Notes: a model not told the origin generated them from the letters alone. Shown: positions 25,484 to 64,000, counted from the stretch's first letter. The stretch: DNA of 64,000 nt from Bacillota bacterium (GCA_029572815.1 JAKPUQ010000060.1:13274-77273), one strand, 5' to 3'. Numbers and translations are program-made.

Positions 25484-25488
25484 TGAGT

Positions 25489-25513
25489 GGGAGCAGCTTC
25501 GGCTGCTCCTTTT
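25489..25513 (+). terminator. Intrinsic terminator
   Basis: GGAGCAGC-TTCG-GCTGCTCC followed by TTTT. Confidence 0.8.
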
Positions 25514-25557
25514 CATTTTTTTATATCTTGCAGCATATGATGTCCTGAGGTGATTTT

Positions 25558-42920: not shown

Positions 42921-42928
42921 ATTTACAC

Positions 42929-45232: not shown

Positions 45233-46964
45233 ATGAAGAAATTACTTAAATACCTCAAAAATTATAAGAAGGAACTTGTTCTCGGACCTTTTTTCAAGCT
45301 TCTGGAAGCTGTTTTTGAGCTTATAGTGCCTGTTGTCATGGCAAGGATAATCGATAATGGCATCGGCAATAACGATACTGCTTACATTATAAAGATGAGC
45401 GGACTTATTGTTGTTCTCGGTGCCAGCGGGCTCTGTTTCGCCCTGACCTGTCAGTATTTTGCGGCAAAGTGTGCATACGGATTTGGCACTGAGCTCAGGG
45501 CTGACCTGTACAGGCATATCAATTCGCTCTCATATGAAAGTATAGACAAGATAGGAACATCATCCCTTGTAAACAGGCTCACCAATGACACAAATACGGT
45601 TCAGAATGGTGTGAATATGTTTATCAGACTTGCTGTAAGAGCTCCTTTCCTTGTTATCGGTGCTGCTGTTATGGCAGTGACTATCGATCTTAAGCTTTCA
45701 CTTGTTTTCTTCGTTGTTGCGCCTCTGATCTCACTTGTTATTTTTTTATAATGAAAAAAATGTTGCGATGTACAAAAAAACTCAGCAGTGTCTTGACAGA
45801 GCTTCGCTTCTTACCAGTGAAAGTCTTGAAGGCGCAAGAGTCATCAGAGCTTTTTCTCGTCAGAATGAGGAGATCGATGAATTCAAGGAAGCCGTTGATG
45901 ATATATCCGAAAATTCCATAGCTGTCGGAAAAATATCTGCCATTCTTAATCCGGTTGCATTCATGGTTATGAATCTGGGGATTGTTGCTGTTATCTGGTT
46001 CGGCGGAAAGAGGGTAGATGTCGGCAGACTCACACAGGGTGAGCTTACGGCTTTTACCAATTATATGACACAGATACTGCTTGCGCTGGTGGTTCTGGCT
46101 AATCTTATCGTGATATTTACAAAGGCTTTTGCCTCTGCAAACAGGATAAGTGAAGTATTTTCGCTCCTTCCTGAGGAGAACGGTACAGTTTGTGAGATAA
46201 AAGATGAGAAAAAAGCGATTATCGAATTCAGCAGCGTGTCATTTGCATATGCTGGTGCAGGAGATTATTCTCTGAGGAATATAAGTTTTTCTGTTATGGG
46301 GGGACAGATGCTTGGCATCATAGGCGGTACAGGCTGCGGCAAATCGACTCTTGCTAACCTGATCCCCTGTTTCTACAGAGCGACAGAAGGAGCAGTAAAT
46401 GTTTTCGGGGTCAATGTAAATGATATTGACAATGAGCAGCTCAGACGCAGGATAGGTATAGTTCCTCAAAAGGCCACCTTGTTTACAGGTACTATCCGCG
46501 AAAATATGAGGTGGCGTAAGTCGGATGCTACCGATGATGAGATAATTTCAGCCTTGAAGACTGCACAGGCGTGGGACTTCGTCAGCAATAGTCCTGATGG
46601 CCTTGATACTGTTATATCCCAGGGCGGCAAAAATCTCTCAGGCGGTCAGAAACAGCGTATTTCCATTGCAAGAGCTCTTGTAGGAAGCCCTGATATCGTA
46701 ATTCTTGATGATTCAACAAGCGCTCTGGATTATAAGACGGATCTTGCTTTCAGACGCGCACTGAGCGAGGACCTTCCTGATACAACTGTTGTAATGATCT
46801 CGCAGAGGACAACTTCTCTTAAGAATGCCGACAAGATCATTGTTATGGACGAAGGAGAGGCGGTTGGTATAGGTACTCATGAAGAGCTTGTACGAAACTG
46901 CGATGTCTATAATGAGATATACAGGTCACAGATGAACGAAAAAGGAGGCAGTACGGATGCTTAA
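45233..46964 (+). pseudogene. Heterodimeric ABC exporter subunit split by a frameshift near 45741-45760 (probably an assembly homopolymer error)
   Basis: The TMD begins in ORF 45233-45751 and continues in ORF 45735-46964, which has GGTGCGKST, LSGGQKQR and LDD. The break lies in adjacent T7 and A7 runs. Confidence 0.85.
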
Positions 46965-48723: not shown

Positions 48724-48752
48724 ACTTATACCAAATTTACTTTGTTTAATTC

Positions 48753-48781
48753 TTGACAAACTGAATGAAATGTTGTACAAT
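48753..48781 (+). promoter_or_regulatory. Aconitase operon promoter
   Basis: TTGACA-17 nt-TACAAT with an extended TG. Confidence 0.75.
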
Positions 48782-48819: not shown

Positions 48820-50757
48820 ATGGGCTTAACTTTAACAGAAAAGATACTCAGAGCACACCTTGTTGACGGCGAGTATGTCAAGGGACAGGAGATCGGTATC
48901 CGTATCGATCAGACCCTTACACAGGATGCAACAGGTACAATGGCATATCTCGAATTTGAGGCAATAGGTGTTCCTCGTGTAAAGACCGAGCGCTCGGTCG
49001 CTTACATAGATCATAACACTCTTCAGAACGGCTTTGAGAACGCAGATGACCACAGATTTATCGGAAGCGTTGCAAAGAAGCACGGTATTTACTTCTCACG
49101 TCCCGGCAACGGTATCTGCCACCAGGTACATCTTGAACGTTTTGGTATCCCCGGAAAAACTCTCATCGGTTCTGACAGCCATACCCCTACTGGCGGCGGT
49201 ATCGGCATGATCGCTATCGGTGCAGGCGGACTTGATGTTGCCGTAGCAATGGGCGGCGGTGCATACTACATTACCTGCCCGAAGGTAGTTAAAGTTGAAC
49301 TCACTGGAAAGCTTCAGCCCTGGGTAGCTGCAAAGGATGTTATCCTCGAGGTCCTCAGAAGAATGTCTGTAAAGGGCGGCGTAGGAAAGGTCATTGAGTA
49401 CTGCGGCGAGGGCGTAAAGACACTTTCGGTTCCTGAGAGAGCAACTATTACAAATATGGGTGCAGAGCTGGGTGCAACAACATCTGTATTCCCTTCGGAC
49501 GAGATAACAAAGCAGTTCCTCAAGGCTCAGAAGCGTGAAGAGGTATGGACTCCTCTTGCTGCTGATCCTGATGCAGTTTACGATGAAGAGCTTCATATAG
49601 ATCTCAGCAAGCTCGTTCCTCTTGCAGCCTGTCCTCATTCTCCTGACAATGTAAAGAGCGTCGAGGAGATCGGAAAACTTAAGATAGACCAGGTTTGTAT
49701 CGGTTCATGCACAAATTCTTCGCTTCTTGATATGCTCAAGGTAGCTCATATATTAAAGGGCAAGACAGTTAATCCCGACGTTTCTCTTGCTATTGCTCCC
49801 GGCTCAAAGCAGGTTCTCAATATGCTTGCTCAGAACGGTGCGCTTTCTATACTCATAGATGCAGGTGCAAGAATTCTTGAGAGCGCCTGCGGTCCTTGTA
49901 TCGGTATGGGACAGTCGCCTAACTCAAAGGGCATCTCACTCCGTACCTTCAACAGAAATTTTGAAGGACGCTCAGGCACAAAGGACGGACAGATCTATCT
50001 GGTATCTCCTGAAATGGCTGCTGTTTCCGCTCTTACAGGTTATCTTACAGATCCCAGAGAGCTGGGCGATATGCCTGACTTCAAGCTTCCCGAGGAATTC
50101 GTTATCAACGATAACATGATAGTTCCTCCTGCTTCTGAGGCTGATATGGACAGCGTTGAGATTCTTCGCGGTCCCAACATCAAACCCTATCCCGAGACTT
50201 CACCTCTCCTTGAGACTATTGATGCTCCCGTATCACTCAAGGTTGGCGATAATATCACAACCGACCACATCATGCCTGCCGGTGCAAAGATCCTTCCTCT
50301 GCGTTCAAATATCCCGAAGATCTCACAGCACTGCTTCGCTGTATGTGATGAGAGCTTCCCTGAGAGAGCAAAGTCTCTTGGAAAGAGCATCATAGTAGGC
50401 GGCTCAAACTATGGTCAGGGCTCCTCAAGAGAGCATGCTGCACTTGCACCTCTTTACCTTGGCGTTAAGGCTGTACTGGTAAAGTCATTCGCAAGAATAC
50501 ACCGTGCTAACCTCATTAATGCAGGTATTCTGCCCCTCACATTTGTGAATGAGGCTGATTATGACAATATTGCCCAGGGTGATGAGCTTGTTCTTGCAGA
50601 TGTAAGAAAGGCTGTAGAGGACGGCATGTCCGAGCTTACAGTTGTTAACAAGACAAACGGCAAGGAGATCCCTGTACTCTGTGAGCTTTCAGGTCGTACA
50701 AAGGATATCATGCTTGCAGGCGGACTTCTCGACTATACAAGAGAGTCAATGAAGTAA
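48820..50757 (+). CDS. Aconitate hydratase (short anaerobe type)
   Basis: QDATGT, IDHN, GICHQ, GSDSHT, Fe-S cysteines in GSCTN and CGPCIG, ITTDHI, NYGQGSSREHA. Confidence 0.92.
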   Translation: MGLTLTEKILRAHLVDGEYVKGQEIGIRIDQTLTQDATGTMAYLEFEAIGVPRVKTERSVAYIDHNTLQNGFENADDHRFIGSVAKKHGIYFSRPGNGICHQVHLERFGIPGKTLIGSDSHTPTGGGIGMIAIGAGGLDVAVAMGGGAYYITCPKVVKVELTGKLQPWVAAKDVILEVLRRMSVKGGVGKVIEYCGEGVKTLSVPERATITNMGAELGATTSVFPSDEITKQFLKAQKREEVWTPLAADPDAVYDEELHIDLSKLVPLAACPHSPDNVKSVEEIGKLKIDQVCIGSCTNSSLLDMLKVAHILKGKTVNPDVSLAIAPGSKQVLNMLAQNGALSILIDAGARILESACGPCIGMGQSPNSKGISLRTFNRNFEGRSGTKDGQIYLVSPEMAAVSALTGYLTDPRELGDMPDFKLPEEFVINDNMIVPPASEADMDSVEILRGPNIKPYPETSPLLETIDAPVSLKVGDNITTDHIMPAGAKILPLRSNIPKISQHCFAVCDESFPERAKSLGKSIIVGGSNYGQGSSREHAALAPLYLGVKAVLVKSFARIHRANLINAGILPLTFVNEADYDNIAQGDELVLADVRKAVEDGMSELTVVNKTNGKEIPVLCELSGRTKDIMLAGGLLDYTRESMK

Positions 50758-51033: not shown

Positions 51034-52245
51034 ATGGCTAAAATAACCATGAAAACACCGCTGGTCGAAATGGACGGCGACGAAATGACAAGAATTCTCT
51101 GGCAGTGGATCAAGGAAACTCTTCTTGAACCATATGTAGAGCTTAATACAGAATACTATGATCTCGGTCTCAAGCACAGAGAGGAGACCAAGGATCAGGT
51201 GACGCTTGATTCTGCCGAGGCTACAAAGAAGTACGGTGTAGCTGTAAAGTGCGCGACTATTACACCTAACGCTGCGAGAATGCCTGAGTATAATCTCACT
51301 CAGATGTGGAAGTCTCCTAACGGAACTATCCGTGCAGCGCTCGATGGTACTGTTTTCCGTACACCTATCATCGTAAAGGGTATCGAGCCCTATATCCCTA
51401 CATGGACAAAGCCAATTACTATTGCCCGTCACGCTTACGGTGATGTTTACAAGAATACCGAGATGCGCGTAAGCAAGGGCAGTAAGGCTGAACTGGTTGT
51501 AACTGACGAAAACGGTAACGAGACCCGTGAGCTTATCCATGAGTTCACAAAGTGTGACGGCATAATTCAGGGACTTCACAATCTCGACGCTTCTATCGCA
51601 GGTTTTGCAAGAGCTTGCCTTAACTACGGTCTTGATCTCAAGCAGGATGTATGGTTTGCTTCCAAGGATACAATTTCAAAGAAGTATGACCACCGTTTCA
51701 AGGACATCTTCCAGGAGATCTATGATAACGAATACAAGGAGAAGTACGAGGCTGCCGGCATCGAATACTTCTATACTCTTATTGACGATGCGGTTGCAAG
51801 AGTTATCCGGTCAAACGGCGGATACATCTGGGCTTGCAAAAACTATGACGGCGATGTAATGTCAGATATGGTATCTACAGCTTACGGAAGCCTTGCTATG
51901 ATGACTTCTGTTCTTGTTTCGCCTGACGGAATATATGAGTATGAGGCTGCACACGGAACTGTTCAGCGCCACTATTACAAGTACCTCAAGGGTGAGGAGA
52001 CATCGACAAACTCTGTTGCAACTATCTTTGCATGGAGCGGAGCTCTCAGAAAGAGGGGAGAACTTGACGGAACTCCGGAGCTCTGTGATTTCGCTGATAA
52101 GCTTGAGAAGGCTACTATACAGACTATCGAGGACGGCGTTATGACAGGTGATCTTTATCTTATCTCTAAGCTTGACAACAAGAAGAAGGTTGATTCCAAG
52201 ACCTTCCTTGACGAGATAAAGATCAGACTTGATAAATTAATGTGA
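51034..52245 (+). CDS. icd: NADP-dependent isocitrate dehydrogenase
   Basis: [46 protein letters not shown]. Confidence 0.96.
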
Positions 52246-52266: not shown

Positions 52267-52914
52267 ATGTCAAAAAACTCAATATCCAACTCTGTCATAA
52301 GAAGGCTTCCGAGGTACTATCGCTTTCTCGGGGAGCTCGAGAACAACGGATATGTTCGTATATCTTCAAGAGAGCTGTCGGAGAAAATGGGACTTACCGC
52401 TTCACAGATTAGGCAGGACTTTAACTGCTTCGGTGAATTCGGACAGCAGGGCTATGGCTATAATGTAAGTGATCTTCGCCTTGAGATCGGCAAGATCCTC
52501 GGCCTTGACAAGCAGACGCCGATGATCCTTCTTGGTGCGGGAAATCTCGGAAAAGCAATTGCTGCCCACATAGATTTCCATAATAAAGGCTTTGACCTTA
52601 TTGGTGCCTTTGACATCAACGAAGAGCTTATTGGCAAGGAAATAGGCGAGCTTAAGGTCAGAAGTATTGACGAGCTCAGCTCCTTCTGTGCCGAAAACAA
52701 GCCTGTTGCGGCTATTCTCTGCGTTCCGATGCAGGCTGCCGAAAAGCTTGTAAATACACTTATCGGCTGCGGCATCAAAGCTTTCTGGAACTTTACACAT
52801 TATGACCTCAAGGTCACTCATAAGGATGTGGCAGTTGAGAATGTACACCTCGGCGATAGTCTTACAACTCTTTCTTACGGACTTAACAATATAGAATTGA
52901 CTGAAAAAAAGTGA
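52267..52914 (+). CDS. rex: Redox-sensing transcriptional repressor Rex
   Basis: RRLPRYYR, ISS-EL, QIRQDFNCFG-FGQQGYGY, GAGNLG. Confidence 0.96.
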   Translation: MSKNSISNSVIRRLPRYYRFLGELENNGYVRISSRELSEKMGLTASQIRQDFNCFGEFGQQGYGYNVSDLRLEIGKILGLDKQTPMILLGAGNLGKAIAAHIDFHNKGFDLIGAFDINEELIGKEIGELKVRSIDELSSFCAENKPVAAILCVPMQAAEKLVNTLIGCGIKAFWNFTHYDLKVTHKDVAVENVHLGDSLTTLSYGLNNIELTEKK

Positions 52915-52920
52915 TCTTTA

Positions 52921-52953
52921 AAAACGGAACAGAGCGGATCTGTTCCGTTTTTT
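52921..52953 (+). terminator. Terminator after rex
   Basis: AAAACGGAACAGA/TCTGTTCCGTTTT followed by TTT. Confidence 0.85.
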
Positions 52954-53325
52954 TATCAAACGAGTGTGAAAAAATTATCAATGTTTTTCACGTGATATAT
53001 AAAATAAAGAATTTTCAAATTCCAAAAACGAATTACTGATTCATGTGGTTCACGGATGATTTTTTATTTCATGGTGTTATTGATCAGGGGGATAAAACTG
53101 CTTTTCACCATTTTGAGTTTCGGTTATATTAGTCATGGCTGTTGAAAAAGCAAAGTTTGTAAGTCAAATGCAACAAAAATAATTCTTGACAACCCCGGAA
53201 TTTGTAAGCAGCAAAAGAGTGATATAAAAACAAATATATCATTTTTTATATGTGGCTATCTTAGTGTGATCACATCTTTGTTAATTATATATCAATATCT
53301 GAATACCGATATTCTTAAACTGAAT

Positions 53326-53354
53326 TTGAATTTATCCGAAGATACTGGTATACT
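53326..53354 (+). promoter_or_regulatory. Candidate promoter of the fumC-hdr-flx-frd operon
   Basis: TTGAAT-17 nt-TATACT with an extended TG. Confidence 0.6.
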
Positions 53355-53434
53355 TATAATGTATAGTAATGTTGAAACAGGTATAACTTTGTCGCAAGAC
53401 TTGTTATACAAGATCATCAGGGGAGAGGATAATT

Positions 53435-54811
53435 ATGGATTTTCGTATCGAACATGATTCAATGGGCGAAGTAAAGGTGCCTGCTGATAAGTACTGGGCT
53501 GCACAGACTGAACGCAGTCATGAGAATTTTCTTATCGGTGTAGGCATAGAGACCATGCCTAGAGAGATCACTCATGCCTTTGGAATCCTTAAAAAGGCTG
53601 CAGCTCTTTCAAATCATGAGCTTAAGCCTGAAAAAATGACCGATGAAAAGCTGAATGCTATATCTCAGGCGTGTGACGAGGTTATAAGTGGCTCACTCAA
53701 TGATCATTTCCCCCTTGTAGTTTGGCAGACAGGAAGCGGCACTCAGTCAAATATGAACGCCAACGAGGTCATTGCCAACCGTGGAAATGAGATCGCGGGA
53801 GCAAAGCTTCTTCACCCTAATGATGATATAAACATGAGCCAGTCTTCAAATGATACCTTTCCGACTGCAATGCACATCGCAGCAGTTATCGCTCTTGAAG
53901 ACAAGGTGATTCCGGCTGTTGATGTACTCATCGAAACCTTCAAGCACCTTGAGACCGAAAACGAAGGTATAGTAAAGAGCGGAAGAACACATCTCCAGGA
54001 TGCAACTCCTATAAAGTTCTCTCAGGAAATAAGCGGTTGGAGAGCTTCGCTTGAAAAGGACAAAAAGATGATACTTTCAGCCTGCGAAGAGCTTAAAGAG
54101 CTTGCCCTCGGAGGTACAGCTGTCGGAACAGGTCTGAATGCTCCCAAGGGGTTTGCTGAGAAGGCTGCTGAGAATATAAGCAAGCTTACAGGAAAAAAGT
54201 TTATCACTTCTCCCAATAAATTCCATTCCCTCACATCAAAGGACGAGATAGTTTTTGCACACGGAGCTCTCAAGGCTCTGGCAGCTGATATGATGAAGAC
54301 CGCCAACGATGTAAGATGGCTTGCTTCAGGTCCCAGAGATGGTCTTGGAGAGATCTTCATTCCCGAAAACGAGCCCGGTTCGTCTATCATGCCCGGTAAG
54401 GTCAATCCCACACAGTGCGAACAGGTAACTATGGTAGCCGTTCAGGTAATGGGCAATGATGTTGCAGTCGGTATGGCTGCTTCACAGGGCAATTTTGAAC
54501 TGAATGTATTCATGCCTGTGTGTGCATATAACTTCTTACAGTCTGCAAGGCTGCTTGCTGAGTCCATCATGTCTTTCAACAAGAACTGTGCCGTGGGCAT
54601 TAAGGCAAATAAGGAAAAAATGCATCATAATCTTTACAATTCCCTTATGCTTGTTACAGCTCTTAATCCCTATATCGGATATGAGAATGCTGCAAAGACA
54701 GCCAAGAAGGCGTTCAAGGATAATATTTCTCTGAAGGAAGCCTGCGTTGAACTCGGATTTCTTACTGCCGAAAGGTTCGACGAGGTGTTCCATCCTGAAG
54801 AAATGGTTTGA
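53435..54811 (+). CDS. fumC: Class II fumarate hydratase
   Basis: HDSMG, WQTGSGTQSNMN, SSNDTFPT, GRTHLQDATP, GSSIMPGKVNPTQCE. Confidence 0.97.
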   Translation: MDFRIEHDSMGEVKVPADKYWAAQTERSHENFLIGVGIETMPREITHAFGILKKAAALSNHELKPEKMTDEKLNAISQACDEVISGSLNDHFPLVVWQTGSGTQSNMNANEVIANRGNEIAGAKLLHPNDDINMSQSSNDTFPTAMHIAAVIALEDKVIPAVDVLIETFKHLETENEGIVKSGRTHLQDATPIKFSQEISGWRASLEKDKKMILSACEELKELALGGTAVGTGLNAPKGFAEKAAENISKLTGKKFITSPNKFHSLTSKDEIVFAHGALKALAADMMKTANDVRWLASGPRDGLGEIFIPENEPGSSIMPGKVNPTQCEQVTMVAVQVMGNDVAVGMAASQGNFELNVFMPVCAYNFLQSARLLAESIMSFNKNCAVGIKANKEKMHHNLYNSLMLVTALNPYIGYENAAKTAKKAFKDNISLKEACVELGFLTAERFDEVFHPEEMV

Positions 54812-54835
54812 TATTATACGAAAGGAAGCGTACAA

Positions 54836-55633
54836 ATGGAAACTTTTACCTATTACCCTGGCTGTACGCTGAGAACCAAAGCAAAGGACCTTGATACATA
54901 TGCAAGGTTCTCTGCGGAGGCTCTCGGTATCTCTCTTGAGGAGCCTGCTGACTGGCAGTGCTGCGGCGGAGCTTATACTACGGCTAAAGACGAGATCGCT
55001 ACTAAGCTTTCAGCTGTAAGAACTCTCAACTCGGCAAAGGTCAGCAACAGACCTCTTATCACAGTCTGTTCAGCCTGTCATAATGTTATCAAACAAACTA
55101 ATTATGATATTCTCCACGACGAGGAGGTGGCTTCCAAGGTCAATAATTACCTGAAGCTCGATGAACCTTATAACGGGGAGACCACTGTATACCACTATCT
55201 TGAGATGCTCCGTGATGTAGTCGGATTTGACAATCTTGCACAGAAGGTAGTAAATCCTTTCAAGGGCAAAAAGATAGCTGCATACTATGGATGTCTGCTG
55301 CTTCGTCCTTCAAAGACTCTTGCTATGGACGATCCCGAAAATCCTTCGATCATGGAAGATTTTATCAAGGCTATCGGCGGAACTCCAGTCATATATGCTC
55401 AGAGGAATGAATGCTGCGGAGGCTACATTACACTCGAAGACAAGGATCAGGCAGCTAAGAGAAGCGGAGCTGTTATGAGCTCTGCTGCTGATCAGGGAGC
55501 TGATATGATCATCACTGCCTGTCCTCTTTGCTTGTATAATCTCAAGAAGAACTCAGGCTCAGAGCTCCCTGTTTACTACTTTACCGAGCTTCTCGCAGAG
55601 GCTCTCGGCGTGAAGGAGGAAAGCAATGAATAA
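54836..55633 (+). CDS. hdrB: Heterodisulfide reductase subunit B-like (two CCG domains)
   Basis: YYPGC...WQCCGG...CSAC and YYGC...ECCGG...ACPLC. Confidence 0.92.
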   Translation: METFTYYPGCTLRTKAKDLDTYARFSAEALGISLEEPADWQCCGGAYTTAKDEIATKLSAVRTLNSAKVSNRPLITVCSACHNVIKQTNYDILHDEEVASKVNNYLKLDEPYNGETTVYHYLEMLRDVVGFDNLAQKVVNPFKGKKIAAYYGCLLLRPSKTLAMDDPENPSIMEDFIKAIGGTPVIYAQRNECCGGYITLEDKDQAAKRSGAVMSSAADQGADMIITACPLCLYNLKKNSGSELPVYYFTELLAEALGVKEESNE

Positions 55634-56009
55634 GAATTTAAAGGAACAGGTCCTTCGTGCCAGCGGAGTAAATGTACTCAAGTGTATGCGCTGCGGAAAA
55701 TGTTCGGGAACCTGCCCCTCATATGACGAGATGGAATATCATCCCCATCAGTTCGTCTACATGGTAGAGCGCGGCGATATTGAGACTCTGATGAATTCAA
55801 AATCCATATACAAGTGCCTTACCTGCTTTGCCTGTGTTGACAGATGTCCCAGAAACGTAGAGCCTGCTAAAGTAGTGGAAGCTGTAAGACTTGCGGCTGT
55901 ACGTCAGCAGGGGAATAATCATATGAATCCCAATCAGATACCTGAAATGCTTGACGACGATCTGCCTCAGCAGGCTATCGTAACAGCTTTCAGAAAGTAC
56001 ATTAAGTAA
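55626..56009 (+). CDS. hdrC: Heterodisulfide reductase subunit C-like (2x[4Fe-4S])
   Basis: CMRCGKCSGTCP and CLTCFACVDRCP. Confidence 0.9.
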   Translation: MNKNLKEQVLRASGVNVLKCMRCGKCSGTCPSYDEMEYHPHQFVYMVERGDIETLMNSKSIYKCLTCFACVDRCPRNVEPAKVVEAVRLAAVRQQGNNHMNPNQIPEMLDDDLPQQAIVTAFRKYIK

Positions 56010-56024
56010 GGAGGAGATCACACT

Positions 56025-58016
56025 ATGCAGAGAATAGGCGTTTTCGTCTGTCATTGCGGAACGAATATCGCTGCAACAGTCGATGTTAAAACTGTTGCGG
56101 AAGCTCTCGGTCACGAGCCCGGCGTGGTCATCTCTCAGGATTACCAGTATATGTGCTCTGAATCGGGACAGAATCTTGTAAAGAATGCTATTAAGGAACA
56201 TAATCTTACAGGTGTTGTTATCTGTTCGTGTTCACCAAGAATGCATGAAAATACATTCAGAAAGGCAGCTGCGGCTGCCGGACTCAATCCCTATCTCGTT
56301 GAGATAGCAAATATCCGTGAGCAGTGCTCGTGGATACACAAGGATATTGCAACTGCCACTGATAAGGCAATAATCCTCGGTAAGGCAGCAGTTGCGAAGG
56401 TACACCTCAATGCTCCTCTTACAGCAGGCGAGAGTCCTGTAGCAAAGAGAGCTCTTGTCATAGGCGGAGGAATCGCAGGTATACAGACTGCCCTCGACAT
56501 CGCTGAGGCAGGCTTTGACGTTGATATCGTTGAGAAGCAGCCTACAATAGGCGGTAAGATGGCACAGATAGATAAGACCTTCCCCACACTTGACTGTGCT
56601 GCTTGTATCCTTACTCCTAAAATGGTTGAGGCTTCACAGAATGAGCATATAACTATCCACTCATTCAGTGAGGTCACAGATGTAAAGGGCTTTGTAGGAA
56701 ACTTTACAGTTACTATCAAGAAAAAGGCACGTTACGTTGATGAGACCAAGTGCACAGGCTGCGGTCTCTGTACGGAGAAATGTCCCATGAAGAAGGTGCC
56801 AAATGAGTTCAATATGGGACTTGACAACAGGACGGCTGTTTATATTCCTTTTGCTCAGGCGGTTCCGAAGGTAGCAACTATCGACCCTAACTACTGCATG
56901 ATGCTCAAGAACGGAAAGTGCGGTGTCTGCTCAAAGGTCTGCTCAGTTGGAGCTATCGACTATAAGCAGCAGGACCGTTTCATCGAGCAGAAGTATGGTG
57001 CTATCGTAGTTGCAACAGGCTTCAATCCTATCAAGCTTGATAAGTATGATGAATTCGCATATAATCAGTGCCCTGACGTTGTTACTTCTCTGGAGCTTGA
57101 ACGTCTTATGAACGCTGCTGGTCCAAACGGCGGAACACTTCTTCGTCCTTCCGATAAGACACATCCCCACAAGATAGTATTTGTACAGTGTGTAGGCTCC
57201 AGATGCGACGACAGCAAGGGTAAGCCTTATTGTTCAAAGATCTGCTGTATGTACACCGCCAAGCACGCAATGCTTATCCGTGAGAAATACCCTGATACAG
57301 AGGTATATGTATTCTACATAGATGTTCGTACTCCCGGCAAGAACTTCGATGAATTCTACCGCCGTGCAGTTGAGCAGTACAATGTTCACTACATAAAGGG
57401 CATGGTCGGAAAGGTAACACCTCGTTCCGACGGCAAGATAGATGTACAGGCTTCTGATCTTCTCGCCAATGAACAGCTCCATATTGATGCTGATATGGTT
57501 GTCCTGGCAGCAGCCATCGAGCCTGACAAGACTGCACGTCCTCTTGCTACTATGCTTACAACACAGATGGACACCAACGACTTCTTTACAGAAGCTCATC
57601 CTAAGCTTCGTCCTGTAGAGAGCGCTACAGCGGGTATATTCCTATCAGGTGCTTGTCAGGGACCCAAGGACATTCCCGAGACAGTTGCTCAGGCAAGTGC
57701 AGCAGCTGCAAAGGCTATCGGTCTTCTTGTGAAGAACAGCATAACCTGCAATCCTTGTGTTGCTCATTCAAATGAGCTTATGTGCAACGGATGCTCGTCC
57801 TGTGAAAAGGTTTGTCCCTACAGAGCTATCACTTATGAAGATAAGGAATTCAGAATGCCTGACAGAACAACAGCTATACGTCGTGTTGCAAGTGTCAACC
57901 CTGCGGTATGCCAGAGCTGCGGTGCTTGTACAGTAGCTTGTCCTTCAGGCGCTATGGACCTTAACGGCTTCTCTAACAGTCAGATCATGGCGGAGGTAGA
58001 CGCAATATGCAAGTAA
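56025..58016 (+). CDS. hdrA: Heterodisulfide reductase subunit A (FAD, Fe-S)
   Basis: GVFVCHCG-NI, CSCSP, NIREQCSW, GGGIAG, KTFPTLDCAACILTPKM, an inserted ferredoxin domain, QCVGSR...CSKICCMY, GACQGPKDI and a C-terminal ferredoxin. Confidence 0.96.
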   Translation: MQRIGVFVCHCGTNIAATVDVKTVAEALGHEPGVVISQDYQYMCSESGQNLVKNAIKEHNLTGVVICSCSPRMHENTFRKAAAAAGLNPYLVEIANIREQCSWIHKDIATATDKAIILGKAAVAKVHLNAPLTAGESPVAKRALVIGGGIAGIQTALDIAEAGFDVDIVEKQPTIGGKMAQIDKTFPTLDCAACILTPKMVEASQNEHITIHSFSEVTDVKGFVGNFTVTIKKKARYVDETKCTGCGLCTEKCPMKKVPNEFNMGLDNRTAVYIPFAQAVPKVATIDPNYCMMLKNGKCGVCSKVCSVGAIDYKQQDRFIEQKYGAIVVATGFNPIKLDKYDEFAYNQCPDVVTSLELERLMNAAGPNGGTLLRPSDKTHPHKIVFVQCVGSRCDDSKGKPYCSKICCMYTAKHAMLIREKYPDTEVYVFYIDVRTPGKNFDEFYRRAVEQYNVHYIKGMVGKVTPRSDGKIDVQASDLLANEQLHIDADMVVLAAAIEPDKTARPLATMLTTQMDTNDFFTEAHPKLRPVESATAGIFLSGACQGPKDIPETVAQASAAAAKAIGLLVKNSITCNPCVAHSNELMCNGCSSCEKVCPYRAITYEDKEFRMPDRTTAIRRVASVNPAVCQSCGACTVACPSGAMDLNGFSNSQIMAEVDAICK

Positions 58017-58453
58017 ATGAAAATAAAGAGTTTGAACCGCTGATCGTTGCCTTCTGCTGTAACTGGTGCTCATATGCAGGAGCCGATCTTTCGGGAACAA
58101 ACAGACTTAATTATCCTACAAATGTAAAGATAATCAGAGTGCCCTGCTCATGCAGAGTAAACCCTATGTTCATTCTCAGAGCCTTCCAGCGCGGCGCTGA
58201 CGGAGTTATCCTCTGCGGCTGTCACCCCGGAGACTGCCATTATACATCAGGCAATTATTTCACAAGAAGAAGAATGACACTCCTGTTCAGTATGCTTGAT
58301 TTTCTCGGAATAGAGCGTGACAGAACAAGGGTAGAGTGGGTATCGGCTGCTGAAGGAGCTAAATTCGCGGCTACAATGAATGAGTTCACTGAGGCAGTAA
58401 AGAAGCTCGGACCTAACCGCAGATTGGAGGATTTACGATGCAGGAAGCAATGA
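58007..58453 (+). CDS. mvhD: MvhD/FlxD-like [2Fe-2S] subunit
   Basis: AFCCNWCSYAGAD, IRVPCSCRV, GADGV---GCHPGDCHY--GN, WVSAAEG. Confidence 0.92.
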   Translation: MQVNENKEFEPLIVAFCCNWCSYAGADLSGTNRLNYPTNVKIIRVPCSCRVNPMFILRAFQRGADGVILCGCHPGDCHYTSGNYFTRRRMTLLFSMLDFLGIERDRTRVEWVSAAEGAKFAATMNEFTEAVKKLGPNRRLEDLRCRKQ

Positions 58454-59409
58454 TAAACAGAGCAAAGCAGCTTCTGGCTGACGGCACCGTAAACCGTGTA
58501 ATCGGCTGGAAGAGGGGAGAGTTCGTGTATGATGTTACTCCCGCAATTTTTGAAACTGCCGAGGAGCTTGATGCTGAGTTCGTTTACGACGACTTTACGG
58601 CAGCAAACGTATCAAAATATCTTGTAAAGGAATGTAAAAAGGAAGGCAAGATTCTTGCTTTTTTGAAGCCCTGTGATACTTACAGCTTTAATCAGCTTAC
58701 CAAGGAGCACAGAGTTGTACGCGATAACGTTTATATTATAGGAATTCCCGGTGGTCCCAAGCTTGATGCCGAAAAGATAAAGGCAAAGGGAATCACAGGC
58801 ATACTTGGCGCTAAAAACGATAACGGAACATTTGTTATAGAAACCCTCTATGGTGAGGAGAAAATGCCTTATTATGAAGCCCTCAGTACAAAGTGTGAGA
58901 GCTGCAAGAGCAAAAAACACGTTGTGTATGACGAGCTTATCGGTGATGACGGAGAAGTTCTTGAGTCTGACCGCTTCGATATGGTGGAGAAGCTTGAGAA
59001 TATGTCTGCTCAGGAAAGATATGACTTCTGGAGAGAGCAGCTTTCCAAATGTATCCGCTGCAATGCCTGCCGTAATGTCTGTCCTGCCTGCACTTGTGAA
59101 AAGTGCGTGTTCGATAATCCTGACTCAGGCGTTGAGAACAAGGCTCCCGCAGACAGCTTTGAGGAGAATATGTTCCACATAATCCGTGCATTCCATGTTG
59201 CGGGAAGATGTACGGACTGCGGCGAGTGCTCGAGAGTTTGCCCTCAGAATATCCCGCTTCATCTGCTCAACAGGAAGTTCATCAAGGACATCAATTCTCT
59301 GTATGGCAATTATCAGGCAGGTGAGGATACTACCTCAAGAGCTCCTCTTAACGATTACAAGACCGATGACTGCGAAGCAAGTATCGTTCATGAAAGGGGA
59401 GTTGAGTAA
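58438..59409 (+). CDS. flxC: FlxC-like 4Fe-4S protein
   Basis: CIRCNACRNVCPAC-C--C and RCTDCGECSRVCP; position matches hdr-flxDCBA clusters. Confidence 0.75.
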   Translation: MQEAMINRAKQLLADGTVNRVIGWKRGEFVYDVTPAIFETAEELDAEFVYDDFTAANVSKYLVKECKKEGKILAFLKPCDTYSFNQLTKEHRVVRDNVYIIGIPGGPKLDAEKIKAKGITGILGAKNDNGTFVIETLYGEEKMPYYEALSTKCESCKSKKHVVYDELIGDDGEVLESDRFDMVEKLENMSAQERYDFWREQLSKCIRCNACRNVCPACTCEKCVFDNPDSGVENKAPADSFEENMFHIIRAFHVAGRCTDCGECSRVCPQNIPLHLLNRKFIKDINSLYGNYQAGEDTTSRAPLNDYKTDDCEASIVHERGVE

Positions 59410-60428
59410 TGCTGAAAATATCACTTGATAGAATAAATGAACTCTTTGAAGCTATCTCAGCTTCTCAGACGCTGTATATCCCCACAGACCGTGAGGACGG
59501 TGCTGCTGAATACAGAAAGTACGAGAGTGGCATGAAGCTCAGTAATGCCCTCAATACAGTAAGAAGTGCCAAGGACTTCTTCTTTCCTCAGACCGAAAAC
59601 CTCGTTGACTTCAAAATGGAAGGCAAAAATATCGAGGTAATAGATATTCGCAAGGAATCAGAAGATTTTGTTATCTTTGGAGCACGTGCCTGCGATGCAA
59701 GAAGCTTCACTATTCTTGACAAGGTCTTTCTTGCTGAACCTGTGGACAGCTACTATAAGACACGCCGCGAGCATGGTACAGTTGTAACTATGGCTTGTAC
59801 ACGTCCTTCCGAGACCTGCTTCTGCGGAGTTTTCGGCATAGACGCTACAGCTCCCGAGGGCGACGCTGCCTGCTGGAGCGACGGTGAGAGCATTTTCTTT
59901 GAGGCTCACAACGAAAAGGGAAAGAAATTCATTGACTCTATCTCATCTCTTCTTGAGGATGGAGATACCGCAAAGCTTGAGGAGACACGTGAAAAGACCA
60001 GAGCTATTCTTAAAAAGCTTCCTCTTGCGGGTCTTTCTACCGAGTCATTCGGCGGCGAACGCATGATGGAGCACTTCAACTCTGAAAAGTGGGGAGAACT
60101 TTCAGAGAGCTGTCTCGGCTGCGGAACCTGTACATTTGTATGCCCCACCTGCCAGTGCTATGACATTAAGGACTTCAATACCGGTCACGGCATAAAGCGC
60201 TTCCGCTGCTGGGATTCATGTATGTACTCCGATTTCACAAAGATGGCTCATGGTAATCCCAGACTTACCCAGCTTGAGCGCTTCCGCCAGAGATTTATGC
60301 ATAAGCTTGTGTATTTCCCTGCGAACAATAACGGCGAATTCGGATGTGTAGGCTGCGGAAGATGCTTATCAAAGTGTCCGATTTCCATGAATATCGTCAA
60401 GGTAATGAAAGCATTGGAGGTAAAGTGA
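59409..60428 (+). CDS. flxB: FlxB/AsrA-like 4Fe-4S protein
   Basis: G-R-CD, C----ETCFC, CLGCGTCTFVCPTCQC, RCWDSC, CVGCGRCLSKCP. Confidence 0.78.
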   Translation: MLKISLDRINELFEAISASQTLYIPTDREDGAAEYRKYESGMKLSNALNTVRSAKDFFFPQTENLVDFKMEGKNIEVIDIRKESEDFVIFGARACDARSFTILDKVFLAEPVDSYYKTRREHGTVVTMACTRPSETCFCGVFGIDATAPEGDAACWSDGESIFFEAHNEKGKKFIDSISSLLEDGDTAKLEETREKTRAILKKLPLAGLSTESFGGERMMEHFNSEKWGELSESCLGCGTCTFVCPTCQCYDIKDFNTGHGIKRFRCWDSCMYSDFTKMAHGNPRLTQLERFRQRFMHKLVYFPANNNGEFGCVGCGRCLSKCPISMNIVKVMKALEVK

Positions 60429-61255
60429 TGAATAATGATGCATTGATACCTTACATAGGAGTAGTTACCGATATAAGACAGGATACTCCCGACGTAAAGA
60501 CATTCAGGGTAGTTTCTCCTGAGGGCGGTAAGGTATTCGAGCATATGCCCGGACAGTGCGCTATGCTCTCGATCCCCGGTGTCGGCGAGGGTATGTTCTC
60601 AATAACTTCTTCTCCTACAAATAAGGATTTTATGGAGTTCAGCATAAAGAAGTGCGGCTGCCTTACAACATGGCTTCACGCTATGGACGTTGGTCAGCAG
60701 ATAACTATCCGCGGACCTTACGGAAATCATTTCCCGGTCGAGACTGAACTCAAGGGCAAAGACCTGCTGTTTATCGCAGGCGGTATCGGACTTGCACCGC
60801 TTCGTTCAGTTATCAATTATGTCCGCGACAACCGTTCTGACTACGGCGATGTGCAGATAGTTTACGGTTCACGTTCAAAGGACGATCTCGTTGACTACAA
60901 GGAGATAATTGACGAGTGGATGGCTGACGAGGGAATAGAGGTAAACCTCACAATAGACAATCCTCAGGAAGGCTGGGACGGTCATGTCGGATTCGTTCCA
61001 AATTATGTCAAGGAGCTCAATCCTTCCATAAATAAAACAGTTCTTATATGCGGTCCTCCCATAATGATAAAGTTTACTCTTGCAGGACTGAAAGAGCTTG
61101 GCTTTACAGAGACTCAGGTATATACAACTATGGAGCTTCGCATGAAGTGTGCCGTAGGAAAGTGCGGACGCTGCAATATCGGCAGCAAGTACGTCTGCAA
61201 GGACGGACCTGTTTTCCGCTTTGATCAGCTTGATGAGCTGCCTGATGAATATTAA
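60428..61255 (+). CDS. flxA: FlxA/AsrB-like FAD/NAD(P)H oxidoreductase with a [2Fe-2S] cluster
   Basis: PGQ--M, IRGPYGN-F, AGGIGLAPLR, CGPPIM, MKCAVGKCGRC...CKDGPVF. Confidence 0.82.
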   Translation: MNNDALIPYIGVVTDIRQDTPDVKTFRVVSPEGGKVFEHMPGQCAMLSIPGVGEGMFSITSSPTNKDFMEFSIKKCGCLTTWLHAMDVGQQITIRGPYGNHFPVETELKGKDLLFIAGGIGLAPLRSVINYVRDNRSDYGDVQIVYGSRSKDDLVDYKEIIDEWMADEGIEVNLTIDNPQEGWDGHVGFVPNYVKELNPSINKTVLICGPPIMIKFTLAGLKELGFTETQVYTTMELRMKCAVGKCGRCNIGSKYVCKDGPVFRFDQLDELPDEY

Positions 61256-61270
61256 GGAGGAGAATTTAGC

Positions 61271-61954
61271 ATGGATAATATGTTGAATGTTTACCTGTTC
61301 GGCAAGAGATATCAGGTGCCCGCAGGTCTTACGATAATGACAGCTATGGAATATGCAGGCTACGAGCTTGTAAGAGGCTGCGGCTGCCGTAACGGCTTCT
61401 GCGGTGCCTGCGCTACCATTTACAGAATAAAGGGAGAGATAGAGCTCCACGGATGCCTTGCCTGTCAGACTGAGATACAGGAAGGAATGTACGTTGCCAC
61501 ACTTCCTTTCTTCCCGCTTGAAAAGAGAGTATACAATATCGAGGAGATAAAGCCCACACAGCAGATAATGATGCAGCTCTATCCCGAGATATACAGCTGT
61601 ATCGGCTGCAATGCCTGCACAAAGGCTTGTACTCAGGAGCTCAATGTTATGCAGTATATCGCATACGCTCAGAGAGGCGAGTATGACAAGTGTGCAGAGG
61701 AGAGCTTTGACTGCGTAATGTGCGGCGTATGTTCATCACGCTGTCCCGCAGGTATCTCTCATCCTCAGGTAGCAATGCTTGCAAGACGCCTCAACGGAAA
61801 GTATATCGCTCCCGAGTGCGGTCATCTTGCAGACAGGGTAAATGAGATAAACGAGGGTATCTTTGATGAGAAGATAGCCGAGCTTATGACAAAGGCTGTA
61901 GATAACCTTGAAGAGATCAAGGATATGTACAACCATCGTGAGATCGAGAAGTAA
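61271..61954 (+). CDS. frdB: Fumarate reductase/SDH iron-sulfur-like subunit ([2Fe-2S] plus 2x[4Fe-4S])
   Basis: CRNGFCGAC...CLAC, then CIGCNACTKAC and CVMCGVCSSRCP. Confidence 0.75.
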   Translation: MDNMLNVYLFGKRYQVPAGLTIMTAMEYAGYELVRGCGCRNGFCGACATIYRIKGEIELHGCLACQTEIQEGMYVATLPFFPLEKRVYNIEEIKPTQQIMMQLYPEIYSCIGCNACTKACTQELNVMQYIAYAQRGEYDKCAEESFDCVMCGVCSSRCPAGISHPQVAMLARRLNGKYIAPECGHLADRVNEINEGIFDEKIAELMTKAVDNLEEIKDMYNHREIEK

Positions 61955-61966
61955 GGGGGAGAGAAG

Positions 61967-63568
61967 ATGTACAAGATAGAAAAGCTTAATGAACTTGCAA
62001 AGGTAGTTGCAGAGAAAAGAGCTGAGAATGCAGCTCTCGAACCCAGACGTATGACAGCTGAGGAAAAGGACGACCTTCTTGCTCATTTCCACCCCGATTA
62101 CAAGCAGGACGAGTTCACAGTTCTTTCAGCAGGCGTAAATAAGGGCGATAAGGTCCCCACACAGCTTGCAGCTCTTCTTCAGGGCAAGAGCAGGATCACT
62201 GCTGCCGATGTAGACCTGTCAGCTCCCGATTATGATACAGATGTACTTATTATCGGAGGCGGCGGTGCTGGTGCTTCAGCAGCTATCGAGGCTGACGAAG
62301 CTGGTGTCAAGACAATGATCGTTACTAAGCTTCGTATCGGTGATGCAAATACAATGATGGCAGAGGGCGGTATCCAGGCTGCTGACAAGCCCAATGACTC
62401 TCCCGCTATCCACTTTCTTGACGCTTTCGGCGGCGGACATTTCGCTGCTAAGCCCGAGCTCGTAAAGAAGCTTGTTACAAAGGCTCCTGAGGCTATCCAG
62501 TGGCTCAATAAGCTTGGTGTAGAGTTCGACAAGGAACCAGATGGTACAATGGTCACAACTCACGGCGGCGGTACTTCGAGAAAGAGAATGCACGCTGCAA
62601 AGGACTACTCAGGTGCTGAGATAATGCGTACACTTCGCGATGAGGTCATCAATCGTGGTATTCCCGTTATTGACTTCACAGCTGCGATCGAGATAATCCT
62701 TGACGAAAACGGCAAGGCAGCAGGCGCTGTTCTTATGAACATGGAGACCAAGGAGCTTCTTGTTGCAAGAGCGAAGACGGTTATAATCGCAACAGGCGGT
62801 GCAGGAAGACTTCACTATCAGGGCTTCCCAACATCAAACCACTACGGCGCTACAGCTGATGGACTTATACTCGGCTACCGTGTAGGTGCAAAGCTCCTTT
62901 ATGCAGACACACTCCAGTATCATCCTACAGGAACAGGCTACCCTGAGCAGATATTCGGCGCACTGGTTACCGAGAAGGTACGTTCGCTTGGTGCAAAGCT
63001 TGTCAACATAGACGGTGATGTATTCATGCATCCCCTTGAGACAAGAGATGTTACCGCAGCTTCTATTATCCGCGAGTGTACAGCCCGCGACAAGGGTATA
63101 GAGACTAACCTCGGAAAGGCTATCTGGCTCGATACACCTATGATAGAACTTATCCACGGTGAAGGAACTATCGAAAAGCGTATACCTGCCATGATGAGGA
63201 TGTTCGGCAAGTACGGTATCGATATCCGCAAGGAGCCTATCCTTGTTTATCCCACACTTCACTACCAGAATGGCGGTCTTGATATTACTGATGACTGTGC
63301 AACAGGCGTAGAGAATCTTTACGCAGCAGGTGAGGTAGCAGGCGGCATCCACGGACGTAACCGTCTCATGGGCAATTCTCTCCTTGATGTTATCGTATTC
63401 GGCAGAAATGCAGGAATCTACGCATCAGCCAAGGCTAAGGAGTCTTCTGAGCCTCAGGGACTTACTCTCGGACATATTGAGAAGTTCAATAAGGAACTTG
63501 AAGCTGCAGGTGTTGCAGGCGACACAGCTTCACCTATGCTTCTTCCTCATTACGCAAGAAAGAAATAA
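61967..63568 (+). CDS. frdA: Soluble fumarate reductase flavoprotein-like subunit
   Basis: GGGGAG; dicarboxylate-site motifs QYHPT, ETRD, HYQNGG and HGRNRLMGNSL; no His for covalent FAD (ANTMMAEGG). Confidence 0.82.
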   Translation: MYKIEKLNELAKVVAEKRAENAALEPRRMTAEEKDDLLAHFHPDYKQDEFTVLSAGVNKGDKVPTQLAALLQGKSRITAADVDLSAPDYDTDVLIIGGGGAGASAAIEADEAGVKTMIVTKLRIGDANTMMAEGGIQAADKPNDSPAIHFLDAFGGGHFAAKPELVKKLVTKAPEAIQWLNKLGVEFDKEPDGTMVTTHGGGTSRKRMHAAKDYSGAEIMRTLRDEVINRGIPVIDFTAAIEIILDENGKAAGAVLMNMETKELLVARAKTVIIATGGAGRLHYQGFPTSNHYGATADGLILGYRVGAKLLYADTLQYHPTGTGYPEQIFGALVTEKVRSLGAKLVNIDGDVFMHPLETRDVTAASIIRECTARDKGIETNLGKAIWLDTPMIELIHGEGTIEKRIPAMMRMFGKYGIDIRKEPILVYPTLHYQNGGLDITDDCATGVENLYAAGEVAGGIHGRNRLMGNSLLDVIVFGRNAGIYASAKAKESSEPQGLTLGHIEKFNKELEAAGVAGDTASPMLLPHYARKK

Positions 63569-63575
63569 TTAAAAA

Positions 63576-63596
63576 GGGACGCCGTAATGGCGTCCC
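63576..63596. other. GC-rich hairpin with no U tract on the + strand
   Basis: GGGACGCC-GTAAT-GGCGTCCC, preceded by A5 and followed by GAAAT. Confidence 0.6.
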
Positions 63597-63634
63597 GAAA
63601 TATGTATTTATAAAAGAAAGTTAAGTGATAAATA

Positions 63635-64000
63635 ATGGATTTTTTCAACGGAATTCTTTCTATTCACGGCGTTTCATTCCTGATGATCTCGGTAATTGCC
63701 ATTGCTGCTCTCGGTTACATTCTCGGAAGGATTACAATAAAAGGTATCTCTCTCGGTACCGCAGGCGTATTTATAGTGGCTCTTATCTATGGCTGTATTT
63801 TCTATAAACAGCTTTCTGATGAAATAAATACCGACTTCGTAGGAAATGCCCTGAAGATAGTTGACAATCTCGGACTTATTCTTTTTGTGACAGCTGTTGG
63901 CTTTATTGCAGGACCTAATTTTTTCGGCAATTTCAAGAAAAACTTCAAATCCTATGTGCTTCTGGCGATAATTATTATACTCAGCGGCGGACTTGCATGT
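63635..64000 (+). CDS. AspT/YidE/YbjL-family transporter, 3'-truncated by the window edge (not in the ORF track)
   Basis: My translation from ATG 63635 is MDFFNGILSIHGVSFLMISVIAIAALGYILGRITIKGISLGTAGVFIVAL...LGLILFVTAVGFIAGPNFF. G--LG-I-I-GISLG-AGV and GL-LFV-AVG---GP-FF are family signatures. Confidence 0.85.
   Translation, partial: MDFFNGILSIHGVSFLMISVIAIAALGYILGRITIKGISLGTAGVFIVALIYGCIFYKQLSDEINTDFVGNALKIVDNLGLILFVTAVGFIAGPNFFGNFKKNFKSYVLLAIIIILSGGLAC

Follow-up and report, generated by a model that had tools for sequence, protein, structure and literature searches.

A soluble fumarase-Hdr-Flx-fumarate reductase operon in the Ruminococcus flavefaciens group: a candidate route for electron-bifurcating succinate formation

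How might a rumen bacterium reduce fumarate to succinate with soluble proteins, and could that reaction be coupled to the reduction of ferredoxin? The question is raised by eleven genes on the plus strand at positions 53435-64000 of a 64,000-nucleotide (nt) stretch of DNA from a Bacillota bacterium (GCA_029572815.1 JAKPUQ010000060.1:13274-77273), the whole of which is called the window here. Open reading frame (ORF) and domain calls give a fumarase gene, seven genes of Hdr and Flx type, two genes for a putative soluble fumarate reductase and a transporter gene that is cut by the end of the window (g1 to g11; Table 1). An earlier note, made from the sequence of the window, had read these genes as a quinone-free route to succinate that conserves energy as reduced ferredoxin. 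The evidence assembled below points to a system that is real, intact and strongly conserved, for which that interpretation is the best available, being neither original nor proven.

The layout of the locus is that of a single, tightly packed operon. The earlier note had described eleven genes on one strand, the first ten overlapping or at most 24 nt apart and uninterrupted by a terminator, and this description was borne out: the genes lie on the plus strand, the spacings across g1-g10 are, in order, 24, -8, 15, -10, -16, -1, -4, 15 and 12 nt (with the g8 start at 60425/60428), and a plus-strand scan found no convincing terminator within g1-g10. Each of these ten genes is preceded by a GGAGG-type ribosome-binding site. 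No transmembrane segment was found in the ten proteins, and Pfam and NCBIfam searches of them detected no hydrogenase catalytic subunit, no FrdC/D or cytochrome b anchor and no sulfur-metabolism domain, again as the note had it; nor did these searches reveal a DsrC-like, thiol-carrier or sulfur-metabolism gene in or beside the operon. The products of g1-g10 are accordingly predicted to be soluble, and their genes to be translationally coupled. The ORF lister placed the start of g8 (FlxA) at an upstream ATG (60344); this was rejected in favour of the conserved start at 60425/60428, the position at which homologues begin to align and which gives a 4-nt overlap in keeping with the rest of the operon.

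The host was also as the earlier note had supposed. The flavoprotein g10 is 99% identical to a protein from a Ruminococcus sp. metagenome-assembled genome (MAG) and 96% identical to proteins of R. flavefaciens, which places the window in the Ruminococcus flavefaciens group. These relatives are annotated merely as 'FAD-dependent oxidoreductase'.

The case for a bifurcating electron module centres on HdrA (g4), which is approximately 60% identical over its full length to a structurally characterised bifurcating HdrA. The HdrA of Methanothermococcus thermolithotrophicus (5ODC_A) was matched with 689.5 bits, residues 3-660 of g4 aligning against residues 5-648, and the cysteine motifs of the two proteins all align, in the N-terminal, inserted-ferredoxin and C-terminal ferredoxin domains. 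HdrB (g2) aligns end to end with methanogen HdrB (8RVV_B and 5ODC_B); both CCG motifs, the sites of the non-cubane clusters, are kept, and its 10 cysteines are aligned to 8RVV_B. Its best NCBIfam matches, to MFR SdhE (142 bits) and HdrB (129 bits), do not reach the cutoff, and nor does any score obtained with the NCBIfam Hdr equivalogs. The FlxABCD domain set is complete, with the FAD/NAD(P)H and 2Fe-2S domains of FlxA, the iron-sulfur (Fe-S) proteins FlxB and FlxC, and an MvhD-type FlxD. In NCBIfam, FlxB (g7) scores 171 bits with ShyB, 159 bits with HydB and 137 bits with AsrA, all below cutoff, and FlxA (g8) resembles sulfhydrogenase gamma/AsrB. Assignment of g4 to the bifurcating type of HdrA is as strongly backed as sequence allows, short of proof. 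The candidate site of bifurcation is g4, and the candidate point of electron entry is g8.

The proposed electron-accepting end of the system is made up of g9 and g10. Alignment of g10 with E. coli FrdA places H319, R339, H432 and R466 at the catalytic residues His232, Arg287, His355 and Arg390, and Asn128 at the position of His44, the residue that carries the covalent 8-alpha-histidyl FAD in FrdA. In ten family members, the most distant only 38% identical, the four catalytic positions and Asn128 do not vary. An AlphaFold2 model of g10 (predicted local distance difference test score, pLDDT, 85.9; predicted template modelling score, pTM, 0.87) has E. coli FrdA (1kf6_A, E 4e-33) as its best structural match, followed by mycobacterial Sdh1 and Shewanella flavocytochrome c3, with NadB in 48th place. 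The protein falls under the cutoff of each of the curated NCBIfam models for TfrA, SdhA/FrdA and NadB; its best match is TfrA (NF004900, 341 bits; cutoff 718), and it scores 270 bits with NadB (TIGR00551, cutoff 452.75). There is no Pfam match to the C-terminal helical domain Succ_DH_flav_C, the protein ending approximately 40 residues past the FAD domain. At its other end, g10 carries an extension of approximately 90 amino acids (aa; 61967-62240) with a conserved FHPDY...G-N-G-(D/E)-x-VP motif, modelled with good confidence as two helices and a small hairpin and absent from FrdA, SdhA and NadB; g9 or Hdr may dock there. These features set g10 apart, to judge from alignment and model, as a distinct subfamily of soluble flavoproteins with non-covalent FAD. 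Non-covalent-FAD enzymes of this sort work in the reductive direction only, and by analogy the same would be expected of g10.

The partner protein, g9, has one 2Fe-2S motif and two full CxxCxxCxxxC motifs, and matches SdhB (E about 1e-4) and, in NCBIfam, the N-termini of TfrB and dhsB only weakly. A domain scan of g9 and g10 found no CCG or other thiol-oxidising domain in either. It is likely that g9 and g10 form a unit, because chains of the two types are naturally fused in one homologue (P0123, 727 aa) and encoded by adjacent genes in three other loci (L081, L083 and L086). The earlier note had named the pair FrdBA, and the name is only partly apt: g10 keeps the fumarate site and is structurally closest to FrdA, and g9 is no canonical SdhB or FrdB. 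Even for g10 the label FrdA has to be qualified, since the catalytic residues are there and the covalent-FAD histidine and Succ_DH_flav_C are missing, with the N-terminal extension in addition. The names FrdB and FrdA are used for g9 and g10 below in this limited sense.

The arrangement of these genes is conserved far beyond chance. An exhaustive profile search returned 18,774 homologues of g10, and the N-terminal extension is found over its full length in only about nine of the 50%-identity clusters that these form. In a genome scan with one genome per species, at least 597 species-level genomes encode a relative of g10, and synteny was counted in the best 80 of them (73-96% identical to g10), all MAGs or isolates and nearly all labelled as Clostridia, including Ruminococcus, Oscillospiraceae, Acutalibacteraceae and Yeguia hominis. 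Upstream flank of 7.2 kb or more was available for 59 loci, from gut or rumen Clostridia, and in 58 of these the order HdrB-HdrC-HdrA-FlxD-FlxC-FlxB-FlxA-FrdB-FrdA was present on one strand. FumC stands in front in 53/57 loci, and an AAE transporter gene lies within 2.5 kb downstream in 51/77, counting in each case the loci with enough flank. The single exception to the nine-gene order is a Congzhengia locus (L076:8079-11605), where a CitMHS carboxylate transporter gene is followed by FrdB-FrdA and no hdr or flx gene occurs within 10 kb. On these sequence grounds, the identity and intactness of the modules, their solubility and their strictly conserved linkage can be regarded as established.

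Other loci reveal that the fumarate reductase pair keeps varied company. A four-subunit 2-oxoacid:ferredoxin oxidoreductase (OFOR) precedes HdrA-MvhD-HdrC-HdrB-FrdB-FrdA in L081 (811-9771), which lacks FlxABC and whose flavoprotein is 56% identical to g10. In L083-85 (L083:9366-12891), from hosts that look like proteobacterial sulfur oxidisers, FrdB-FrdA is followed by a single NuoF-like NADH/FMN subunit, and L082 (5250-7433), which encodes the fused protein P0123, and L086 have the FrdB-FrdA pair alone. This variety of partners, from OFOR-Hdr (L081) to the NuoF-like subunit (L083-85), a fusion (L082) and CitMHS (L076), gives FrdBA the look of a portable module whose electron input can be exchanged.

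Taken together, the products of g1-g10 would convert malate to succinate in the cytoplasm, independently of quinones. FumC would make fumarate from the malate, and NAD(P)H, most likely NADH, would reduce the FAD of FlxA, from which electrons would travel by way of FlxB, FlxC and the MvhD-type FlxD, all Fe-S proteins, to the FAD of HdrA. There the electron pair would be split, one electron going uphill through the ferredoxin-like domains of HdrA to ferredoxin, and the other downhill through HdrC, HdrB and g9 to the non-covalent FAD of g10 and on to fumarate. The sum would be 2 NADH + Fd(ox) + fumarate -> 2 NAD+ + Fd(red, 2 e-) + succinate, where Fd is ferredoxin, whose sink would be Rnf, Ech or a hydrogenase, and succinate would leave the cell by way of g11. 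With standard potentials of -320 mV for NADH, about +30 mV for fumarate and about -450 mV for ferredoxin, the transfer from NADH to fumarate is calculated to yield about -68 kJ/mol and that from NADH to ferredoxin to cost about +25 kJ/mol, and the coupling is therefore feasible; a published value for NADH:fumarate is -58 kJ/mol (PMC13147460).

Partial matches of g9, g3 and g2 to TfrB (NF004898) indicate that g9-like, HdrC-like and CCG domains are united in one methanogen chain, where the three work as a single electron path, and this union is a precedent for electrons passing between CCG clusters and an FAD at which fumarate is reduced. Direct Fe-S transfer from HdrB/HdrC to g9 is favoured over a thiol shuttle because g9 and g10 lack CCG domains, no carrier gene is present, and TfrB offers that precedent.

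The earlier note had suspected that the arrangement might not be wholly new, and rightly so. A 'succinate operon' with one fumarate hydratase gene, seven Flx-Hdr genes, two fumarate reductase genes and one putative transporter gene has been described in Pseudoclostridium (Clostridium) thermosuccinogenes, with the proteins CDQ83_RS03315-03365, and the hypothesis that NADH drives the reduction of both ferredoxin and fumarate was proposed for it in the same paper, which cites a 2019 preprint (Koendjbiharie et al. 2020, PMC7282089). By this published description, the composition (1+7+2+1) and the organisation as a single same-strand cluster are the same as in the window. CO2 limitation raised the expression of that operon, as one unit, by approximately four-fold, and succinate formation by the organism is suppressed by H2 (PMC7282089); by analogy, both the co-regulation and the H2 effect would count in favour of bifurcation. 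The present locus differs in its host, a rumen Ruminococcus of another family as against a thermophilic clostridium, and in its layout, with rex and Rex-box-like sites ahead of the operon and a hairpin before the transporter gene.

The same coupling has been proposed for clusters of flxABCD-hdrABC, korABCD and tfrAB in sulfur oxidisers that use the reductive tricarboxylic acid (rTCA) cycle (Rubin-Blum et al. 2019, PMC6315080; Mitchell et al. 2024, PMC11636981); an analogous Hdr-Flx/TfrAB idea also appears in a 2026 survey (PMC13147460), where the wording is still 'it has been suggested'. In the clusters of tubeworm symbionts and Thioflavicoccus mobilis, Hdr-Flx likewise feeds a soluble fumarate reductase of AB type, and L081 looks like a cluster of this Hdr-Flx/Kor/Tfr kind. 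The rTCA clusters are autotrophic and interleaved with 2-oxoglutarate:ferredoxin oxidoreductase, whereas the version in the window would be fermentative, with fumarase and exporter and no OFOR. Bifurcating enzymes number only four in a 2024 review of fermentation, and fumarate reductase is not among them (PMC11187502). In the Ruminococcus literature, the only statement found on a link between Hdr and fumarate reductase was a passing remark on an 'unusual' STRING link between the HdrA of R. champanellensis and succinate dehydrogenase/fumarate reductase.

Comparison with better known relatives helps to delimit what is unusual here. The oxidation of NADH by Flx-Hdr in Desulfovibrio, which the earlier note had called established, reportedly rests on genetic and physiological inference, with no enzymological demonstration, and the word was thus too strong. 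The FlxABCD-HdrABC system of Desulfovibrio vulgaris is reported to comprise the same seven protein types, with an NAD(P)H flavoprotein, a pair of Fe-S proteins, an MvhD-like protein and HdrA, HdrB and HdrC (Ramos et al. 2015). The gene order hdrBCA-flxDCBA of the window is inverted relative to it, DsrC and a sulfate-reduction context are absent, and the proposed high-potential acceptor is fumarate, reached through a dedicated reductase. The HdrA, HdrB, HdrC and MvhD-type adaptor of methanogen MvhAGD-HdrABC (5ODC) are homologous to g4, g2, g3 and g5; there, however, the donor is a hydrogenase or formate dehydrogenase, whereas in the window it would be Flx with NAD(P)H, and a fumarate reductase is attached. 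CoM-S-S-CoB is not known to occur in bacteria, and its cofactors are not known from Clostridia.

Among fumarate-reducing enzymes, Methanothermobacter TfrAB is likewise soluble and without a membrane anchor, but g10 lacks the C-terminal part of TfrA, its Fe-S and CCG functions have their counterparts in three separate proteins (g9, g3 and g2), and the donor is presumably NADH via Hdr rather than CoM-SH/CoB-SH. Quinol:fumarate reductase (FrdABCD, complex II) has its fold and catalytic residues in common with g10, and its partner subunit likewise has a 2Fe-2S N-terminal domain and a dicluster domain. In contrast to FrdABCD, the system in the window has no anchor, no covalent-FAD histidine and no C-terminal domain, and g9 has two four-cysteine motifs in place of the 4Fe-4S and 3Fe-4S pair. 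NadB, finally, is a stand-alone protein, whereas g10 has a conserved and sometimes fused Fe-S partner.

Other explanations of the locus were weighed against this background. Flx-Hdr-Frd could be a soluble NADH:fumarate reductase without bifurcation, i.e., a long wire that dissipates the excess energy and reduces no ferredoxin. Such an enzyme would have a counterpart in the fumarate reductase of Hydrogenobacter thermophilus, described as irreversible, NADH-dependent and composed of five subunits (PMC13147460), and the pairing of FrdBA with the single NuoF-like subunit in L083-85 implies that a simple NADH-to-fumarate version does exist. However, the very existence of that three-subunit solution makes a wire of the present length seem expensive, and the seven extra subunits are strictly kept in 58/59 genomes, including a complete HdrA with both ferredoxin-like domains; a purely dissipative role is therefore considered unlikely. 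It is also conceivable that Flx-Hdr bifurcates to ferredoxin and, at HdrB, to the disulfide of either a small thiol or a protein, and that the resulting thiol then feeds fumarate reduction, as in thiol:fumarate reductase. The retention of both CCG motifs of the disulfide-reducing site in HdrB, the rank of TfrA as the top NCBIfam match of g10, and published models that leave 'thiols' or a DsrC-like carrier open would all suit this arrangement. Yet neither g9 nor g10 has a CCG or thiol-oxidising domain, which in TfrB is fused to the Fe-S subunit, and the operon encodes no DsrC-like protein or thiol carrier. As HdrB is the only CCG protein, the thiol loop would have to begin and finish at one site, and this explanation is given little credence.

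The substrate of g10 might also be other than fumarate, such as L-aspartate (as for NadB), urocanate or another enoate, the link to succinate then being coincidental. Homologues among NadB and urocanate reductase do have overlapping scores (TIGR00551 at 270 bits; PDB 5kxj, 1chu and 6t85), and, as noted, no curated NCBIfam model is matched above cutoff. Against this stand the fumarase that heads the operon in 53/57 genomes, the dedicated and sometimes fused Fe-S partner, which NadB does not have, the top structural match to FrdA, the di/tricarboxylate (CitMHS) transporter that adjoins FrdBA in L076, and the reputation of R. flavefaciens as a known succinate producer. NadB-like or other activity was consequently rejected as highly improbable.

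Several observations nevertheless weigh against NADH-driven bifurcation to ferredoxin and fumarate. Close homologues of FrdBA occur with no Hdr-Flx nearby in L076 (73% identical), L082 and L086, and with the NuoF-like subunit only in L083-85, and the reductase is therefore not intrinsically Hdr-dependent. The complete disulfide-reducing site kept in HdrB is not obviously needed by a mere electron relay. When g9 and g10 were joined in an artificial fusion imitating P0123, AlphaFold2 modelled the g9 part with a pLDDT below 50. In the literature searched, up to 2026, no enzymological demonstration of a Hdr-Flx-Frd complex was found for any organism, and for R. flavefaciens the literature gave nothing usable on menaquinone or Rnf.

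Much of the earlier interpretation is upheld, namely the gene identities, the solubility, the lack of a quinone anchor, the fumarate site, the bifurcating-type HdrA, the linkage to fumarase and the AAE transporter, whereas its arrangement and mechanism had already been published. NADH-driven bifurcation to ferredoxin and fumarate remains the best explanation, and the balance of probability tips slightly towards it. From the same evidence we infer that the proteins act as one complex, that bifurcation occurs, that HdrB supplies g9 directly, with no thiol/disulfide carrier between them, that NADH is the specific donor, and what the transporter carries. The fuller proposal is held more tentatively and falls somewhat short of an even chance: that the ten soluble proteins are assembled together and that HdrB, within this single complex, delivers electrons from its non-cubane clusters directly to an Fe-S/flavoprotein fumarate reductase, with no thiol or disulfide and with a C=C bond as the high-potential acceptor, and that this is the main succinate-forming, energy-conserving step in hundreds of species of gut and rumen Clostridia.

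Expression of the operon is probably controlled by Rex, the candidate regulator encoded directly upstream, which would derepress the operon at a high NADH/NAD+ ratio. The spacer between rex and fumC contains the rex terminator (at about 52925-52950), a promoter found by scanning (TTGAAT-17-TGgTATACT, 53326-53354) and two Rex-box-like sites (52964-52981 and 53278-53295); both sites and the promoter are kept in two other Ruminococcus species (L002 and L009). With at most two mismatches to TTGTKAAN4TTMACAA as the criterion, the window contains five matches against 1.29 expected, and these are clustered in the rex-fumC spacer. Another of these Rex-box-like sites (48742-48759) lies 60 nt 5' of an aconitase gene (48820-50757), which, with an isocitrate dehydrogenase gene (51034-52245), stands immediately 5' of rex on the same strand and represents the oxidative branch to 2-oxoglutarate. 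Both halves of a split tricarboxylic acid (TCA) pathway therefore adjoin, with rex in between, and the distribution of Rex-box-like sites suggests NADH-responsive control over both branches.

The last gene, g11, does encode a transporter, as the earlier note had proposed, and its Asp-Al_Ex match assigns it to the AAE family. Its 122 aa within the window contain four hydrophobic segments. The full-length orthologue in L002 (402 aa) has two Asp-Al_Ex domains (210 bits) and no match to TrkA_C, the TrkA_C/RCK_C domain that is central in AspT and YidE (approximately 560 aa). The succinate exporter SucE of Corynebacterium belongs to the AAE family, and, given this kinship and the gene context, g11 is a candidate succinate exporter. 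The gap between g10 and g11 is 66 nt and holds a GC-rich hairpin (Table 1) with an A-run upstream and no U tract downstream on the plus strand, and for that reason the hairpin can be read as a terminator on the minus strand only. Elsewhere, g10 and the transporter gene lie within approximately 20-30 nt of each other, and the species concerned have no such hairpin between them. A plus-strand terminator after g10 was rejected on both counts, and the hairpin is possibly an attenuator or mRNA stabiliser at most.

Table 1. Positions of the operon genes and associated features in the window
Feature	Coordinates	Strand	Description
rex	52267..52914	+	NADH/NAD+-sensing repressor, directly upstream; NCBIfam NF003990 290.7 bits (cutoff 233); Pfam Put_DNA-bind_N and CoA_binding
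rex-fumC spacer	52915..53434	+	520 nt; control region
g1	53435..54811	+	Class II fumarate hydratase FumC; TIGR00979 704 bits (cutoff 664.75); Pfam Lyase_1 and FumaraseC_C
g2	54836..55633	+	HdrB-like; two Pfam CCG domains; 10 Cys
g3	55626..56009	+	HdrC-like; two [4Fe-4S] motifs; TIGR03290 HdrC 71 bits, below cutoff; Fer4_8/Fer4_17
g4	56025..58016	+	HdrA; flavoprotein with FAD and multiple [4Fe-4S] clusters; NCBIfam HdrA2 801 bits
g5	58007..58453	+	FlxD/MvhD-type [2Fe-2S] adaptor; Pfam FlpD 186.6 bits
g6	58438..59409	+	FlxC-like Fe-S protein; Fer4_8/Fer4_10 dicluster domain, residues 201-303; 16 Cys
g7	59409..60428	+	FlxB-like Fe-S protein of sulfhydrogenase beta/AsrA type; Pfam Fer4_22 106 bits
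g8	60425..61255	+	FlxA-like NAD(P)H flavoprotein with [2Fe-2S] site; FAD_binding_6, NAD_binding_1 and DHODB_Fe-S_bind
g9	61271..61954	+	Putative Fe-S subunit of soluble fumarate reductase; [2Fe-2S] and two [4Fe-4S] motifs; Fer2_4 and Fer4_7
g10	61967..63568	+	Putative fumarate reductase flavoprotein, non-covalent-FAD type; FAD_binding_2 241.9 bits
GC-rich hairpin	63577..63597	+	Perfect 8-bp stem GGGACGCC-GTAAT-GGCGTCCC, directly 3' of the g10 stop; -17.5 kcal/mol, z -3.75
g11	63635..64000	+	AAE-family (Asp-Al_Ex) membrane transporter, incomplete; Pfam Asp-Al_Ex 60.7 bits

Elsewhere in the window, an ABC exporter is divided between two overlapping ORFs (45233-45751 and 45735-46964), the former matching positions 2-159 of ABC_membrane and the latter positions 168-271 followed by the ATPase domain; this split may be due to a frameshift or sequencing error, or may mark a pseudogene, and an intact paralogue adjoins it (46957-48696). 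Three genes for S11 D-Ala-D-Ala carboxypeptidases and one of VanY type are located at 23377-26697 and 10180-11601, three of the four in a row, and that row is preceded by two very large ORFs (16170-19556 and 19387-23196) and a GH25 muramidase gene (14542-16155). A protein containing a type I dockerin is encoded on the minus strand (41964-42980), which fits a cellulosome-bearing Ruminococcus.

The window adds no new idea about fumarate reduction; rather, it extends a published hypothesis to a cultivable, well-studied and cellulolytic Ruminococcus of the rumen. The system is widespread, as at least 597 species-level genomes encode a relative of the flavoprotein, and it is absent from recent reviews of fermentation. 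A classic, cultivable succinate producer of the rumen is a place where the hypothesis developed for P. thermosuccinogenes could be tested. If the hypothesis is true, Ruminococcus and many gut Clostridia would couple the formation of succinate to ferredoxin reduction and would not rely for it on quinone-based fumarate respiration, and the known bifurcating enzymes of fermentation would gain a fifth member. Models of ATP yield and redox balance in rumen and gut fermentation would change, as would predictions of how succinate, and through it propionate, responds to the partial pressure of H2, a point relevant to methane mitigation.

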